Source: a virus. From it: a stretch of DNA of 10,522 bases. Below are positions 3,057-10,516 of the stretch, piece by piece. The position numbers and the translations under genes are program-made. The notes under the pieces are model-generated. The model was not told where the DNA came from and made no database searches. It was given only the letters and a program-made list of their open reading frames with translations. The stretch lies in the UHGV virus genome UHGV-1718161; one strand, given 5' to 3'. Each line of letters begins with the position of its first letter. The stretch's first letter is position 1.

Positions 3057-3092
3057 CTACTTAAAATAGCAAAATGCAACTACTTAAAATAG
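3057..3092. promoter_or_regulatory. OR-like operator/promoter region between divergent cro and cI: two copies of the 13-bp site CTACTTAAAATAG
   Basis: Seen directly: ctacttaaaatag at 3057-3069 and again at 3080-3092 (centres 23 bp apart), in the 70-bp gap between the cro start (3024) and the cI start. Related 13-mers with the same CTA...TAG ends occur at 3893-3905 and 5305-5317. Confidence 0.5.
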
Positions 3093-3094
3093 AA

Positions 3095-3835
3095 ATGACT
3101 AGCGTATGTGATGCGAGTAATCTTCTACCTATGGTAGAAGAACAGAAGTATCCAGATTTCGCCAAGAGACTAAACGAGCTAATGACAAACAAGGGAATTT
3201 CTGTCACCCAACTCAAAAGTCTTGTGGGCGTTACATATGAAATGGCGCGGCGATACACAATCGGCGCTGCGAAGCCTCGTGCCTCTGTCATGAATAAACT
3301 TGCATTGGCTCTGGGGGTATCAGCTTCATATTTAGAATATGGTGTTGGCGAGAGAGAAGGATGTAAGGAAATGGCAAGCATCCCCAATCCAACAAAACCC
3401 GATGTATACAGGATAGAAGTTTTGGATCTTAGCGTTAGCGCAGGACCTGGGACCTATATGCTTTCAGACTATGTTGATGTGCTCTACGCCATTGAGTTCA
3501 CAACAGAGCATGCCCGTTCTCTTTTCGGTAATCGTTCTCAAGATGATATTAAAGTTATGACTGTAAATGGCGACAGCATGTCCCCTACTCTAGTTTCCGG
3601 AGATCGACTGTTTGTCGACATTTCTGTTCGCAACTTCCAAACTGATGGTGTTTACTCTTTCGTTTATGGTAAGACGTTCCACGTTAAACGTCTACAAATG
3701 CAAGGCAACAAACTCGCCGTTCTTTCGGATAATCCAGCCTATGAGAAATGGTACATTGATGAGAAGTCCCAAGATCAACTTTATGTTATGGGCAAAGCAT
3801 TGATACACGAATCAATTAAATACAACCGGCTTTAG
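3095..3835 (+). CDS. cI: cI-type prophage repressor (N-terminal XRE-family HTH, C-terminal LexA-like S24 peptidase domain)
   Basis: HTH (FAKRLNELMTNKGISVTQLKSLVGVTYEMARRY), S24 serine motif (VNGDSMSPTL) and downstream catalytic Lys (FHVKRL). Start is ambiguous: the ORF-track ATG at 3074 lies between the two operator copies, so I prefer ATG 3095 (leaderless-style); ATG 3131 is also possible. Stop TAG 3833-3835. Confidence 0.85.
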   Translation: MTSVCDASNLLPMVEEQKYPDFAKRLNELMTNKGISVTQLKSLVGVTYEMARRYTIGAAKPRASVMNKLALALGVSASYLEYGVGEREGCKEMASIPNPTKPDVYRIEVLDLSVSAGPGTYMLSDYVDVLYAIEFTTEHARSLFGNRSQDDIKVMTVNGDSMSPTLVSGDRLFVDISVRNFQTDGVYSFVYGKTFHVKRLQMQGNKLAVLSDNPAYEKWYIDEKSQDQLYVMGKALIHESIKYNRL

Positions 3836-4006
3836 TTCTTCGTTTAGACTATAGAACTAAAGGTAAAAAAAATAATATTTAGCAAGCAAGTGCTATTACT
3901 AATAGTTGTTTTACTCTCTTATTTTTATTAAACATTATCATTAACAATATAAAATAATTACCCAGCGTAAATTACAATATGCTGGGGGTCGAAAGGATAG
4001 AGAAAC

Positions 4007-5083
4007 ATGACAAAATCAATTTGTTTTTTTAATCATAAAGGTGGGGTAAGTAAAACCACAACAACCTTCAATCTTGGATGGGCACTTGCGGATGAAGGCA
4101 AGAAAGTATTGATGGTTGACCTTGATTCGCAATGTAATCTAACAGGAATGGTTCTTGGCTATGAAAAGATTGATGAGGGTTTAGATTCTTTTTATTCTAG
4201 CAGAGATAACTTAACTCTTGGACCTATTGTAGAATATTTGATTAATGGCGGACAACCTGAAGCATACCTTGAAAAAGAAACGGGAAAATTACACCCTACA
4301 CTGCATGAAAACCTTCTGCTTCTTCCCGGACATTTAGATGTTTCGGACTTAGATTCACAGATAAGTGTTTCTCTAAAAATTGCTGCTGGTATTCCTGCTA
4401 CAAGAAATATACCAGGGAACCTGCCAAAAATATTACAGCTAATCGCCTTGAAGAATAATATTGATTACATTCTTTATGATCTCAGCCCTAATGTTGGAGG
4501 TTTAAATGAAGTAGTTCTCATGTCAAGTGACTATTTTATCGTACCTGTAGCTCCAGACTTTTTTTGCTGGCAAGCAATTCGCTCTCTCTCAAAAAATATA
4601 CCTCGCTGGCACAAAGAATTAGCATTATTTAAAGAAAATAATGATGGTAACTCTTCACAATCAATTAAAAATGCACCGCAGTTTCTAGGTATGATTCAGC
4701 AGAGATACAGGCCGCGTAAAGGAGCACCTGTAAAATCTTTCGAAAAATGGATGGCAGCTATCCGTGATGCTGTTGATTCGATCTTAGTGCCAAATCTAGA
4801 AAAAATTACCTGCATAATTCCACGAGATAAAGTGCAACATGCAATTAACAAAACAACAGTCAGTGGAGATTTATCAGCCTATGATCTTGCGCATATTTCC
4901 GATTTCAACTCATTAATCGCAATAAGCCAACAACTAGCGACACCTGTTTTCTCCATCAGTGATCAGCAAATTCGCGATTCAGGGCAATTTGGGCATGCCT
5001 TAAATACAATGAAATCAAGCAGAGACGCCTTTAACGAACAATTTAAAGGGCTGGCTCAACGAGTTCTAGAACTTACAAAGTAA
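4007..5083 (+). CDS. ParA/MinD-superfamily ATPase with a roughly 120-aa C-terminal extension (358 aa); candidate lysogen-expressed exclusion/defence protein
   Basis: Deviant Walker A NHKGGVSKTT (res 9-18), ParA-type LMVDLDSQCNL, Walker-B-like ILYDLSP. AAGGA/GAGAAA RBS before ATG 4007. Sits in a visibly AT-rich segment directly downstream of cI in the same orientation and is followed by an intrinsic terminator. No ParB-like partner ORF or parS-like repeats nearby. Confidence 0.85.
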   Translation: MTKSICFFNHKGGVSKTTTTFNLGWALADEGKKVLMVDLDSQCNLTGMVLGYEKIDEGLDSFYSSRDNLTLGPIVEYLINGGQPEAYLEKETGKLHPTLHENLLLLPGHLDVSDLDSQISVSLKIAAGIPATRNIPGNLPKILQLIALKNNIDYILYDLSPNVGGLNEVVLMSSDYFIVPVAPDFFCWQAIRSLSKNIPRWHKELALFKENNDGNSSQSIKNAPQFLGMIQQRYRPRKGAPVKSFEKWMAAIRDAVDSILVPNLEKITCIIPRDKVQHAINKTTVSGDLSAYDLAHISDFNSLIAISQQLATPVFSISDQQIRDSGQFGHALNTMKSSRDAFNEQFKGLAQRVLELTK

Positions 5084-5090
5084 TGCATGT

Positions 5091-5127
5091 GCCCGGCCGC
5101 ATAACCGGGCTTTACTCTTCTTTCTCC
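5091..5127 (+). terminator. rho-independent terminator after the ParA-like gene
   Basis: GCCCGG (5091-5096), loop ccgcataa, CCGGGC (5105-5110), followed by a T-rich tract tttactcttctttct. Confidence 0.6.
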
Positions 5128-5268
5128 CTGATTAATCTCATAAAAAACTCCCTCCTCATAATTCACTATGCTCAATACCTACTCCAACTTCGTGCGATAT
5201 TTTCAGTTTACAGCATAGTAAATCAGCAAAAACATTTAACTTTCAATTAATTATAGAAAAATCATAGA

Positions 5269-5326
5269 CAACAACAAATATCTACTTTTTGTTGTTGATT
5301 TTTGCTACTTTAAGTAGCAACATAAT
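5269..5326 (+). promoter_or_regulatory. pL/OL-like regulatory region: two adjacent palindromes plus a -10-like CATAAT
   Basis: Inverted repeat caacaacaaa (5269-5278) / tttgttgttg (5288-5297). Perfect 19-bp palindrome ttgctacttTaagtagcaa (5302-5320) containing the operator-like 13-mer CTACTTTAAGTAG (5305-5317). CATAAT at 5321-5326, TTGATT at 5295-5300 (spacing not ideal). Position mirrors lambda oL/pL after the rex slot. Confidence 0.35.
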
Positions 5327-5404
5327 GTAAGCTATCACGGACAGGCAGGACGCCCACGAAGTAGCCTCCTGGGACATATGAAGTCCAGGATGATTCGTTA
5401 GCAA

Positions 5405-5428
5405 CAAAAAAGCGCCCTACAGGACGCT
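5405..5428 (-). terminator. rho-independent terminator of the minus-strand 173-aa gene
   Basis: On the minus strand: AGCGTCC-TGTA-GGGCGCT (7-bp stem with one G-U pair) followed by TTTTTTGTTGC, about 40 nt after the stop at 5471. Confidence 0.55.
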
Positions 5429-5430
5429 TA

Positions 5431-5443
5431 GCTCTTTAACAAT
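5431..5443 (+). promoter_or_regulatory. boxA-like antitermination motif (GCTCTTTAACAAT), rrn/phage-21-type
   Basis: Plus-strand gcttaGCTCTTTAACAATctggg matches the rrn boxA core TGCTCTTTAACAA and resembles the phage 21 nut boxA as I recall it. Lies about 110 nt downstream of the pL-like palindrome and 2 nt after a hairpin (boxB-before-boxA order, as in rrn leaders). Confidence 0.4.
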
Positions 5444-5470
5444 CTGGGTATCATCCAACCAATGCAAGAT

Positions 5471-5992
5471 TTAAGGAATCCAAGGCGAATTCAGATCTCG
5501 CCCCAACTCACGTAATGATCTTGGTCGTTCGTACATCGGATTTTTTTCCATAAGAAATTTATTTTCACAGTGAAGGCAACGGCTTGTAAGAAAATGAGAA
5601 GTTTTACCTACTGGAAGCGGATGAAGTATCGATTTTATATTTTTGGAATAACAAAGTGGGCACAGATGCACAGTTATTTCTTTTCCACTCACAATTTCAT
5701 TTTTAGAGTAAACAAAAGCACCAGAGTCAAGCTGATCAAGGACATATCCTTCTACCTTGGCACAAAAATCTTCAAACTCTGCAATTTTTGCTTTGAGATG
5801 CATCACCTCTTCATCACGAAGGCGGATCGCATCGCCAAGAGAGAAGCATTCTGCCTGAAGCGTGATTAGTTTGTTCTGGAGTTCAATGGTTGCAGCTTTA
5901 ACTTCTGCATCCGTTTTCGCGTCATTAATAACCTTAGCAAGACCGGCAGTCTCCTTTATAGCGGCCATAGCCGCAGACAGTTCAGCTATCAC
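5471..5992 (-). CDS. hypothetical coiled-coil protein with a C-terminal C4 zinc ribbon (173 aa)
   Basis: N-terminal 80 residues are Ala/Lys/Glu-rich and helical; CPLC (111-114) and CLHC (139-142) form CxxC-x24-CxxC. ORF-track start is a GTG at 5992; the first ATG is at 5968-5966, neither with a strong SD. Own terminator downstream. Antisense plus-strand ORFs (5570..5869, 5862..6056) look like low-complexity shadows. Confidence 0.7.
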   Translation of the reverse strand: MIAELSAAMAAIKETAGLAKVINDAKTDAEVKAATIELQNKLITLQAECFSLGDAIRLRDEEVMHLKAKIAEFEDFCAKVEGYVLDQLDSGAFVYSKNEIVSGKEITVHLCPLCYSKNIKSILHPLPVGKTSHFLTSRCLHCENKFLMEKNPMYERPRSLRELGRDLNSPWIP

Positions 5993-6008
5993 GTTGAATA
6001 CTCAGCTA

Positions 6009-6052
6009 GTTGTTGGGGATATCCAGATTAACCAAATCCTTGTTGTTGGGGA
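6009..6052. repeat. two direct copies of GTTGTTGGGGA flanked by CTAG, in the promoter region of the 173-aa gene
   Basis: gttgttgggga at 6009-6019 (followed by tat) and at 6042-6052 (followed by ata), 33 bp apart; ctag at 6005-6008 and 6057-6060. Confidence 0.45.
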
Positions 6053-6461
6053 ATAACTAGGTCCACCTCGCCTGATGTGGCTAAAAGCAGGCACATAACA
6101 GCTAAGTATTTTCAACCAGAGAGAATCCTTAGCGTTGTGGTGAATGCGGCTCAGCGCACGCGGGTTAAGGTTGAGGCTGACAGTCGACCTTCTGTGGATA
6201 CCCACCCGCCTGGTGTGCAACCTTCGCCAGGCACCGGGAGGCACCCGGCACCACAACTTTATGCTGTGTGTAGTCCTGGCGGTATCAGCTTGTACCCTTG
6301 CTTCCGGCTGGTACCGTCCTTTTTACAAAACAGAGAAGAGTATCACCGGACGACGGGCTCATAACCCAATCCATCCGGGCGGCTGCCACCGCAGGTGTTC
6401 TTCTCTGTTTTGTGGAGAAACCAACCGACCTTGCAGGGTCGATATGATGGGGAGCAGCAAA

Positions 6462-6824
6462 ATGGCTAGCGAACGCAGTACTGATGTGCAGGCATTTATC
6501 GGGGAGCTGGACGGCGGCGTATTTGAAACCAAAATCGGCGCAGTTCTCAGTGAAGTCGCTTCCGGTGTGATGAACACGAAAACCAAAGGTAAGGTCTCGC
6601 TCAACCTGGAAATCGAACCGTTTGATGAGAACCGTGTAAAAATCAAACACAAACTCTCATATGTTCGCCCGACTAACCGCGGGAAAATTTCCGAAGAAGA
6701 CACCACCGAAACGCCGATGTATGTCAATCGCGGTGGTCGCCTGACTATTCTGCAGGAAGACCAGGGACAATTACTGACTCTTGCCGGTGAACCTGACGGA
6801 AAACTCCGCGCAGCAGGTCGTTAA
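6462..6824 (+). CDS. yfdP: hypothetical early-left accessory protein, YfdP-like (120 aa)
   Basis: The ORF-track frame is open from 6144, but the N-terminal 100 aa are R/C/W/P-rich junk typical of GC-rich non-coding DNA. ATG 6462 is preceded by GGAGC. Length and position match the first gene of the yfdP-Q-R-S-T block of E. coli K-12 CPS-53 (recalled from memory). Confidence 0.6.
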   Translation: MASERSTDVQAFIGELDGGVFETKIGAVLSEVASGVMNTKTKGKVSLNLEIEPFDENRVKIKHKLSYVRPTNRGKISEEDTTETPMYVNRGGRLTILQEDQGQLLTLAGEPDGKLRAAGR

Positions 6825-6889
6825 TATCGTTTTTAATAAACTGATTATTTATCTCATCACTGAATATCTTTATATAGTGAGGACTTATT

Positions 6890-7714
6890 ATGTCTCAGAA
6901 CTTAGACGCAACCGCAATTAATCAAATCCATGCCCTTATTTCTGCTCAGGGTGTTAATGAAATTATCAGTAAGATTGGTGCCGATGCTGTGGCATTGCCT
7001 GAGAATTTCCGCATTCATGATCTGGAAAAATTTAATTTAAATCGCTTCCGTTTCCGTGGTGCGCTTTCCACTGCCAGCATCGATGACTTTACCCGTTATT
7101 CTAAAGATCTTGCAGATGAAGGCACCCGCTGCTTTATCGATGCTGATAATATGCGAGCCGTCAGTGTGCTTAACCTGGGTACTATTGATGAACCAGGTCA
7201 CGCAGATAACACCGCCACTCTCAAACTGAAAAAGACAGCACCGTTCTCTGCCCTGTTGTCTGTTAACGGCGAGCGTAACTCCCAGAAGTCACTGGCAGAA
7301 TGGATTGAAGACTGGGCCGACTACCTTGTGGGCTTTGATGCTAATGGTGACGCCATTCAGGCAACAAAAGCGGCTGCGGCGGTCCGTAAAATCACGATTG
7401 AAGCAAACCAGACCGCTGATTTTGAAGACAATGACTTCAGCGGCAAACGCTCTCTGATGGAGTCTGTCGAAGCGAAAACCAAAGACATTATGCCAGTAGC
7501 ATTTGAGTTTAAATGCGTTCCGTTTGAAGGCCTGAAAGAACGTCCGTTTAAATTACGCCTCAGCATTATCACTGGTGATCGCCCTGTACTGGTTCTGCGC
7601 ATTATTCAGCTGGAAGCAGTGCAGGAAGAAATGGCTAACGAATTTCGTGATCTGCTTGTTGAAAAATTCAAAGACAGCAAAGTAGAAACCTTTATTGGTA
7701 CTTTCACCGCCTGA
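6890..7714 (+). CDS. yfdQ: YfdQ-family phage protein (274 aa), function unknown
   Basis: Clean ORF with GAGGA 6 nt before ATG 6890, followed by a hairpin terminator. Length, sequence impression and gene order match YfdQ of K-12 CPS-53 (recalled). Confidence 0.75.
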
Positions 7715-7726
7715 TTTCATTACTGC

Positions 7727-7748
7727 AAATGCCCCTGCGGGGGCATTT
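7727..7748 (+). terminator. stem-loop / weak intrinsic terminator after the yfdQ-like gene
   Basis: AAATGCCCC-tgcg-GGGGCATTT, a perfect 9-bp stem at 7727-7748; the downstream T-tract is short. Confidence 0.4.
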
Positions 7749-7841
7749 ATGGAAACGTAATTAACTCAATAATCGCCTGATGGCGAGGGTTTTCTTTAAC
7801 CAAAATTCAGCGCGGTGCAGCGCATATACGTGGAGAACAAA

Positions 7842-8378
7842 ATGTCATTTATTAAAACTTTTTCCGGGAAGCATTTTTATTATGACAGGATAAATAAAGA
7901 CGACATCGATATTAACGATATCGCGGTTTCCCTTTCAAATATCTGTCGCTTTGCCGGTCATCTTTCGCACTTCTACAGCGTCGCCCAACATGCGGTTCTT
8001 TGCAGCCAGCTGGTGCCGCAGGAATTTGCTTTTGAAGCGTTAATGCATGATGCAACAGAAGCGTATTGCCAGGACATTCCCGCACCACTGAAACGCCTTC
8101 TTCCTGACTATAAACAAATGGAAGAAAAAATAGACGCCGTAATCCGTGAGAAATACGGGTTACCCCCAGTTATGAGTACGCCCGTGAAATATGCCGATCT
8201 CATCATGCTGGCAACCGAACGCCGCGATCTCGGGCTTGATGATGGCTCTTTCTGGCCTGTACTGGAAGGTATCCCGGCAACAGAGATGTTCAACGTGATT
8301 CCACTGGCACCGGGCCATGCCTACGGGATGTTTATGGAACGCTTTAACGAGTTATCGGAGTTACGCAAATGCGCATGA
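7842..8378 (+). CDS. yfdR: HD-domain phosphohydrolase, YfdR-like (178 aa)
   Basis: ORF track starts at GTG 7815, but ATG 7842 has GGAGAA 5 nt upstream and gives 178 aa. HD motif in ...EALMHDATEAY..., upstream His residues in AGHLSHFYSVAQH. Matches my recollection of YfdR. Confidence 0.8.
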   Translation: MSFIKTFSGKHFYYDRINKDDIDINDIAVSLSNICRFAGHLSHFYSVAQHAVLCSQLVPQEFAFEALMHDATEAYCQDIPAPLKRLLPDYKQMEEKIDAVIREKYGLPPVMSTPVKYADLIMLATERRDLGLDDGSFWPVLEGIPATEMFNVIPLAPGHAYGMFMERFNELSELRKCA

Positions 8379-10440: not shown

Positions 10441-10516
10441 TGGTGCCGATAATAGGAGTCGAACCTACGACCTTCGCATTACGAATGCGCTGCTCTACCA
10501 ACTGAGCTATATCGGC
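10441..10516 (-). tRNA. thrW: tRNA-Thr (anticodon CGU), thrW-type; prophage attachment site at its 3' end
   Basis: Reverse complement reads GCCGATATAGCTCAGTTGGTAGAGCAGCGCATTCGTAATGCGAAGGTCGTAGGTTCGACTCCTATTATCGGCACCA. Acceptor stem GCCGATA/TATCGGC, anticodon loop TTCGTAA (CGT), T-loop TTCGACT, encoded CCA. Confidence 0.9.

Follow-up and report, generated by a model that had tools for sequence, protein, structure and literature searches.

Two cargo genes flanking the left operator of a lambdoid Escherichia coli prophage: a ParA-like ATPase distantly related to GiPD474 and a Rip1 homologue

Genes and Features of the Locus

The sequence UHGV-1718161, which in its whole length of 10,522 nucleotides (nt) is the window referred to below, belongs to a lambda-like (lambdoid) prophage of Escherichia coli and carries, beyond the gene of its cI-type repressor, a gene for a ParA-like ATPase of 358 amino acids (aa) and a convergent gene for a 173-aa zinc-ribbon protein. 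The two genes lie on either side of the left operator and promoter (oL/pL) and are not a pair, as is evident from their independent assortment among E. coli genomes; the ATPase is, by profile comparison, a distant relative of the Salmonella defence protein GiPD474, and the 173-aa protein is, over its full length, a homologue of Rip1 of phage HK446. Judging from these sequence relationships, both are probably defence genes expressed in the lysogen.

The position of oL/pL is indicated by the operator core CTACTTWAARTAG, which occurs at three sites in the 10.5-kb window against 0.04 expected by chance: two sites are in the cro-cI gap (3057 and 3080), and the third, at 5305-5317, is part of the palindromic operator TTGCTACTTTAAGTAGCAA, which stands immediately upstream of a conserved CATAAT -10 element. 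This third site aligns with the consensus TTGACA-N16-CATAAT promoter of the sister phages SfIV and PhiR29_1, in which the sequence between the promoter hexamers differs, as expected from different immunity types. A pL at 5993-6100, beside the start of the zinc-ribbon gene, was considered and rejected because neither an operator nor a shared motif is found there and the operator lies at 5305-5317. Directly after the stop codon of the ParA-like gene there is a terminator-like hairpin, which by its sequence would end the cI/ParA-like transcript.

An earlier sequence-only reading of this DNA had described an ATPase open reading frame (ORF), a zinc-ribbon ORF, a terminator and palindromes, all of which were found again at the positions given, and had proposed the order cI, cargo, terminator and oL/pL, which is confirmed by the operator at 5305-5317 and the hairpin at 5091-5110. 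The AT-richness that it had noticed is also real, with a G+C fraction of 0.32-0.42 over positions 3600-5800 versus 0.43-0.56 in the flanks. In contrast, its placement of both genes in a single island equivalent to the rexAB slot does not hold: oL/pL lies between them, so that the cI-to-pL slot contains the ParA-like gene alone, and the zinc-ribbon gene is beyond pL, antisense inside the early-left operon.

Downstream of pL there is a 111-nt leader that is 95-97% identical across phages of different immunity regions (SfIV, Kati and PhiR29_1) and whose role may be that of a leader, of a small RNA or of a linker for recombination; its folding gave no significant overall structure (z -0.44). The hairpin at its end is predicted to be a terminator for the 173-aa gene on the minus strand and weakly terminator-like on the plus strand. 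No terminator was predicted in the spacer between cI and the ParA-like gene, and the Rfam scan found nothing above threshold within 3836-6060.

The region under study matches E. coli EC93 with 99.6% identity; in the annotation of the 42-kb EC93 region the prophage has an integrase and is integrated at a tRNA-Thr gene beside proA, and the Rfam scan found a tRNA at 10444-10516 of the window. Ahead of cI, on the minus strand, are an O-like replication gene, ymfL (cII-like) and cro. The order on the plus strand, from cI to the ParA-like gene and then to the 173-aa gene (itself on the minus strand), mirrors the leftward direction of lambda, and beyond it are yfdP, yfdQ, yfdR and yfdT, followed by xis and int. 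The longest ORF of cI begins at 3074, and the RefSeq start is at 3131. The coordinates are collected in Table 1.

Table 1. Features of the window around the cargo genes and, in the last rows, partner genes at loci of ParA-like relatives.
Feature	Position	Strand	Basis or detail
oR operators, two copies of CTACTTAAAATAG in the cro-cI gap	3057-3092	.	Motif at three window sites
cI-type repressor, HTH_3 and Peptidase_S24	3131-3835	+	Pfam; RefSeq annotation of the EC93 prophage
Spacer from cI to the ParA-like gene	3836-4006	+	Weak promoter-like site 3929-3958; AGGA Shine-Dalgarno 12 nt before ATG
ParA/MinD-fold ATPase, 358 aa, solo cargo in the cI-to-pL slot	4007-5083	+	ORF; Pfam AAA_31, CbiA
Intrinsic-terminator-like hairpin GCCCGG...CCGGGC with T-rich tail	5091-5120	+	Hairpin 5091-5110
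oL/pL, palindromic operator (5301-5319) and conserved CATAAT -10 (5321-5326)	5295-5326	+	
Conserved 111-nt leader downstream of pL	5337-5447	+	Ends in hairpin 5410-5429
Rip1-family protein, 173 aa, antisense inside the pL operon	5471-5992	-	Sequence, PHROG and structure matches
Example of a HEPN dyad, locus L087	ATPase 6001-7035; HEPN 7040-7639		
Downstream partner of ~310 aa	L066:7042-7974; L067:7050-7985; L095:7020-7955		Bryobacterales; Thiomonas; Burkholderia

Further downstream, a sub-threshold match to the small RNA family STnc100 was seen at 6104-6326 (+; 40.5 bits versus a gathering score of 47, E 4e-6), with a weaker copy at 7706-7885 (+). The stretch is in the early-left operon just past the 173-aa gene, overlaps a RefSeq "frameshifted hypothetical protein" and may be a structured leader or an RNA of the processive-antitermination type.

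Two Variable Slots with Independent Cargo

The distribution of the two genes was surveyed in 5,426 complete E. coli genomes. The ParA-like gene is present in 109 of them, always at 99% identity or more and, in all 110 places, on the chromosome; the cI allele, at the same level of identity, is likewise present in 109 genomes, an equality which suggests that the ATPase travels with one immunity type (co-occurrence of the two was checked in three genomes). The window's allele of the 173-aa gene is present in 54 genomes, and both genes are covered in only 33 E. coli records, at more than 99% identity in only two.

Prophages that share the same cI and ATPase differ in the second slot: EC11 carries there a 73-aa ClpX-type zinc-finger protein together with a 91-aa protein (L020:5401-5906, +) and PKF4 an unrelated 167-aa gene (L021:5601-6104, -), and in SfIV the pL-proximal position holds the unrelated 144-aa protein p36 (L018:2830-3264, -). 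Conversely, the identical 173-aa gene in WCHEC020031 and a ~73%-identical relative in PhiR29_1 stand directly after a different cI without the ATPase; the first slot is empty in both as well as in SfIV. In GPEC1240 the first slot, after a 94%-identical cI, is filled by two unannotated genes, of 120 and 210 aa, that could not be placed confidently in any family and are further candidate cargo (L023:4250-5241), and in the sister prophage of E. coli STLIN_13 the exact cI-to-pL slot holds a 93%-identical orthologue of GiPD474. As these cases show, sister prophages carry unrelated cargo at the cI-adjacent position. In STLIN_13 the cI allele, 91.5% identical to that of the window, travels with GiPD474 instead, in this one example.

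These data bear on the idea that the two proteins are parts of a single defence system, the ParA-like ATPase being its sensor or motor and the zinc-ribbon protein its effector; a two-gene pair had been one of the options of the sequence-only reading. The genes are in fact adjacent and convergent in the window and in 33 E. coli records, and both are in the AT-rich segment; however, they assort independently across E. coli genomes, they are on opposite strands with a terminator and oL/pL between them, and their relatives work or occur alone, GiPD474 being a single gene and HK446 carrying Rip1 without a nearby ParA-like gene. Moreover, the homologues of the ATPase in Salmonella, Klebsiella and Pseudomonas have no Rip1-like neighbour. 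A functional pair is accordingly scarcely credible.

Cargo beside the repressor is also found in Gifsy-1 of Salmonella 14028s, where it is remAIN. BstA of BTP1 is likewise said to be located next to the repressor.

The ParA-like ATPase and Its Relationship to GiPD474

The ParA-like ORF matches Pfam AAA_31 (E 2e-29) and CbiA. Its Walker A motif is of the deviant type (NHKGGVSKTT), with both the signature lysine and the P-loop lysine, K11 and K16 being invariant in 60 homologues; Walker A' and Walker B are intact. Since all the residues of ATP binding and of the sandwich dimer are invariant in the family, an ATP-dependent dimerisation switch is likely. The AlphaFold2 (AF2) model is confident and consists of a single domain (predicted local distance difference test score, pLDDT, 88; predicted template modelling score 0.90), and the best sequence match in the Protein Data Bank (PDB), 3pg5, is the same for this protein and for GiPD474.

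GiPD474 (STM474_RS13505) is a single-gene defence of Gifsy-1 in Salmonella Typhimurium 4/74, a 361-aa ParA-like protein whose gene directly follows the Gifsy-1 repressor (Bosma et al. 2025, PMC12724215). Alone, it reduces the plating of T4 and Alf5 by ~5 logs and also restricts FO1; it is active in E. coli K-12, strongly transcribed in growing lysogens and narrow in spectrum even among related phages (PMC12724215). The claim that no ParA/MinD-type ATPase belongs to any defence system is outdated by this 2025 work, and a ParA/Soj-HEPN dyad had been predicted in 2013. Neither DefensePredictor nor a domain-centric discovery paper makes mention of ParA-type proteins.

The sequence of GiPD474 was recovered from IMG/VR via the primers of PMC12724215. 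A 73%-identical Salmonella homologue of the window protein (P0010) had been a candidate for GiPD474 and was rejected, as the knockout and cloning primers of the paper mismatch those loci and the true GiPD474 from IMG/VR is a different protein of 361 aa. The window protein and GiPD474 share 22% identity over 352 residues (E 1e-13), and their family profiles align over 306 columns with a probability of 98.9% (hhalign, E 1e-17). The GiPD474 clades are defined in the paper by at least 70% identity, and the ParA-like protein, with 22-23%, belongs by this comparison to a distinct family related to GiPD474 at the profile level. Its gene is directly downstream of the repressor, on the same strand and without a partner gene.

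Homologues of the ParA-like protein with 61-73% identity are found immediately after a repressor in four Salmonella prophages (one of them Gifsy-1), in Klebsiella and in Pseudomonas. Others are beside Arc/Ant modules in Acinetobacter and Chromobacterium prophages, in an integrated element of Mannheimia and, in Megalodesulfovibrio gigas, in a P4-like island beside HicAB, DarTG and a type I restriction-modification system. The neighbour analysis of this close, prophage branch (21 loci of species-representative genomes) showed no conserved partner of any kind. The sole domain fusion seen in the family is P0096, a 472-aa metagenomic protein in which a member of the Klebsiella type has an N-terminal extension of ~104 aa with Pfam PF22746.

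A role in partition or positioning of the prophage or of its excised genome, rather than in defence, could be read from the ParA/Soj/McdA fold with all its catalytic residues, from the name of the matching PHROG (phrog_164, "ParA-like partition protein") and from the very wide distribution and strong conservation of the family. Against it, the prophage is integrated at tRNA-Thr, has an integrase and does not replicate autonomously, and no ParB is annotated, and no partition context was found, in the 42-kb EC93 region; ParB is also not among the commonest neighbour families of the 77 distant and 21 close loci, parS not having been searched for. An HTH_ParB protein is encoded in the replication module of one Klebsiella prophage, with no counterpart in the window. 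The partition equivalogs of NCBIfam score far below their cut-offs (for example, 55 versus 180 bits), and the gene occupies a repressor-adjacent slot in which it is interchangeable with GiPD474, with a HEPN ribonuclease (RNase) as partner in distant relatives. A partition function is, on balance, very unlikely.

Distant Relatives with a HEPN Partner

In a scan of one genome per species, full-length relatives of the ParA-like protein were found in at least 554 genomes, and the 80 best loci, with 39-70% identity, span Proteobacteria, Firmicutes, Cyanobacteria, Chloroflexi and Acidobacteria. Of 77 distant loci, 15, all from the branch with 39-41% identity (loci L082-L106; Chloroflexi, Acidobacteria, Cyanobacteria and Spirochaetes), have on the same strand, 3-15 nt after the stop codon of the ATPase, a HEPN_RiboL-PSP gene whose product of ~200 aa has the RRNxIAH (Rx4H) motif. 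This arrangement looks like a conserved two-gene module, and a dyad of ParA/Soj-type ATPase and HEPN protein had been predicted as a toxin-antitoxin-like module in which the ATPase is the antitoxin (Anantharaman et al. 2013, PMC3710099); no experimental test of the dyad was found in the literature searched. A second downstream partner, of ~310 aa and with no Pfam or PADLOC match, follows the ParA-like gene in three unrelated genomes (Table 1).

The dyad raises the question of whether the solo prophage protein is an orphan of it, either an antitoxin that neutralises a HEPN-type toxin system, whether the host's or that of a rival element, in the sense of anti-defence or anti-addiction, or a regulator of lysogenic conversion like FleN or BcsQ. 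The proposed antitoxin role of the dyad ATPase (PMC3710099), the presence of the HEPN partner in 15 of 77 distant relatives and in none of the prophage branch, and the confident single-domain AF2 model with no visible effector domain are consistent with such an origin. On the other hand, GiPD474, of the same architecture and in the same slot, protects alone in a heterologous host, expression on the lysogenic side is more in keeping with a protective function in the lysogen than with a contribution to lytic growth, and no HEPN_RiboL-PSP gene was seen near the enterobacterial members inspected; an orphan antitoxin or regulator is considered rather doubtful.

The Rip1-Family Protein

The sole sequence relative of the 173-aa protein in the PDB is chain L of 9oox, "ring interacting pore 1 (Rip1)", an entry whose title describes HK446 Rip1 in complex with the small terminase of T6 and whose sequence is that of HK446 gp37. 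The match is significant with the single sequence (phmmer E 1.8e-9, residues 5-151 versus 15-160) and with a profile built from 40 homologues (E 3.3e-20), where it spans the full length and the CxxC...CxxC motifs line up; the pairwise comparison with HK446 Rip1 gives 25% identity (E 2e-13, collinear), and both proteins match phrog_1244 (E ~1e-52). In the alignment of the 40 homologues, C111, C114, C139 and C142 are invariant and the C-terminal tail is variable. The AF2 model (pLDDT 92.5) shows a long N-terminal helical hairpin and a C-terminal four-cysteine zinc-ribbon beta domain, and its only significant Foldseek matches are chains L and M of 9oox (probability 1.0; template modelling score 0.52-0.72, normalised to the length of the target). 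The rip1 gene of HK446 has the same antisense orientation within the pL operon, where it lies between N and ral.

A meeting report (PMC12908700) describes Rip1 as a prophage protein that blocks incoming phage, reports that 12 of its monomers cap a terminase ring of 11 subunits and suggests a mechanism based on a pore; a sentence of a 2026 preprint counts Rip1 among the small-terminase sensors. The variable C-terminal tail of the Rip1-like proteins may reflect diversifying target recognition and target range. Just upstream of the start of the Rip1-like gene, direct repeats CT(A/T)GTTGTTGGGGA are found at 6006-6019 and 6039-6052, 33 nt apart; they bear no relation to the operators of cI and could serve in the regulation of this gene.

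It might be supposed that the 173-aa protein works for the resident phage rather than in exclusion, for example by acting on the small terminase of that phage in packaging or in the timing of lysis; in fact, phrog_1244 is common in temperate phages, including the D3112/DMS3-like phages of Pseudomonas, and the gene is inside the early-left operon. The small terminase of the resident prophage has no relative in the PDB. Nevertheless, the gene is variable cargo, replaced by unrelated genes at the same place in sister prophages, and it runs against the direction of pL. Its relative in 9oox was solved with the small terminase of T6, a foreign lytic phage, and is said to block phages that come in, and the variability of the tail may mean that target recognition is diversifying. 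Service to the resident phage is for these reasons unlikely.

Proposed Explanation

The preferred reading, to which a probability of roughly 0.6 is assigned, is that the locus holds two independent single-gene cargo modules in adjacent variable slots flanking oL/pL, one a defence of the GiPD474-like ATPase kind and the other of the Rip1-like kind. The first slot, from cI to pL, is the counterpart of rexAB and contains the solo ParA/MinD-fold ATPase, which would be expressed in the lysogen by read-through of the cI transcript or from its own weak promoter, with transcription ending at the 5091 terminator; production in the lysogen is inferred because no terminator follows cI and GiPD474 is highly expressed in lysogens. 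By analogy with GiPD474, the ATPase would block particular superinfecting phages after adsorption, its switch responding to a specific phage component, as the narrow spectrum of GiPD474 suggests. In distant relatives the switch would be coupled to the adjacent HEPN RNase, a partner that the prophage version does not have.

The second slot, just downstream of pL, contains the antisense Rip1-family gene. Its product, given the homology with HK446 Rip1, would recognise the small-terminase ring of an invading phage and assemble on it into a multimeric pore, which would kill or permeabilise the cell while progeny are still immature, as in abortive infection. The antisense orientation would allow the gene to be expressed as long as pL is repressed, and upon induction of the resident phage, transcription from pL would interfere with it and silence it.

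Several points weigh against this explanation. The protective role of both window proteins is proposed by analogy with the phenotypes of distant relatives, to which identity is low (22% for GiPD474 and 25% for Rip1); the kinship with GiPD474 comes from pairwise and profile comparison of the two families; the mechanism of GiPD474 is itself unknown (PMC12724215); and the pore mechanism of Rip1 rests on a PDB entry title, a meeting report and one preprint sentence. The contexts of the close ParA-like branch are heterogeneous, an S24/HTH repressor being among the six nearest genes in 3 of 21 loci. The -35 element of the predicted pL is poor in the window, and no sigma-70 promoter that would convincingly serve the Rip1-like gene was found. 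Finally, PADLOC 2.0, the check that had been suggested together with Foldseek, gave only weak, Walker-A-only matches to the candidate PDC-M28B for the ATPase and nothing for the 173-aa protein; this version contains no model for GiPD474, Rip1 or the ParA-HEPN dyad.

A bolder extension of the proposed explanation, offered tentatively and held to be less probable than not by a wide measure, is that the solo ATPase is a complete immune protein, that is, a partition-type ATP switch descended from a ParA-HEPN abortive-infection dyad minus its RNase, acting by a non-enzymatic block of the phage; it might, for example, bind the nucleoid or phage DNA in an ATP-dependent manner and thereby sequester a specific phage component or mislocalise it. 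If true, no system described so far would use such a mechanism of defence, and the maintenance of two parallel ParA-like families at ~60% identity in distant bacteria would have an explanation.

Significance

Each of the two proteins adds a new, distant member to a kind described in 2025-2026, and the category is already known. The idea of an anti-phage module survives in part: each gene has a distant homologue with experimentally demonstrated anti-phage activity (GiPD474 and Rip1), but the two do not make up one module, and the option of a two-gene pair falls with their independent assortment. In this E. coli prophage family, the two positions, cI-to-pL and pL-proximal, act as adjoining hot spots for the exchange of single-gene defences, among them GiPD474, members of a second ParA-like family and Rip1-like genes, as well as several unknowns. 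Through its HEPN link, the second ParA-like family provides a handle on how GiPD474-type defences might work, and the link suggests an origin for solo ParA-like defences; the Rip1-like gene, in turn, extends the family of small-terminase sensors. The known categories are left unchanged, and the value lies in candidate genes and in a testable mechanistic lead.

Comparison with Known Systems

The first slot has in common with lambda rexAB the location of cargo between the repressor and oL/pL, on the strand of the repressor and with a terminator at its end; in the window the cargo is a single gene. Searches of Pfam, PHROGs and PADLOC found no RexA or RexB homology, so that genomic position alone is in common. 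Compared with ParABS, Soj-Spo0J, MinD and McdA, the ParA-like protein is ~100 residues longer, has no ParB, MinE or McdB-type partner nearby and is encoded in an integrated prophage.

With the ParA/Soj-HEPN dyad the locus shares the ATPase, whose homologues at 39-41% identity carry the adjacent HEPN gene in 15 of 77 loci. In contrast, the window ATPase is followed by a terminator and pL and by no HEPN gene; furthermore, the HEPN family named in the paper of 2013 is MAE_18760, and the HEPN_RiboL-PSP pairs may be the same dyad.

The 173-aa protein and Rip1 (HK446 gp37) share full-length homology, phrog_1244, the predicted fold, a similar size (173 versus 164 aa) and the antisense position in the early-left operon of a lambdoid phage. 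They differ in sequence (25% identity), in the C-terminal tail, which is different and longer here, and in position, directly after the pL leader here and between N and ral in HK446. Binding to the small terminase is reported for HK446 Rip1 with that of T6, and a pore is suggested for it; for the 173-aa protein both are proposed by homology.

Finally, the ParA-like protein differs from GiPD474 in the Walker A motif (KGGVSKT versus KGGVGKT in GiPD474), and a plating reduction belongs to GiPD474 only, the ParA-like family being known here from sequence. Both have the ParA/MinD fold with a deviant Walker A and a length of ~360 aa, both are encoded by a solo gene with no ParB, directly downstream of a prophage repressor and on the same strand, and the two families are each separately conserved, with ~55-65% identity across very different bacteria.

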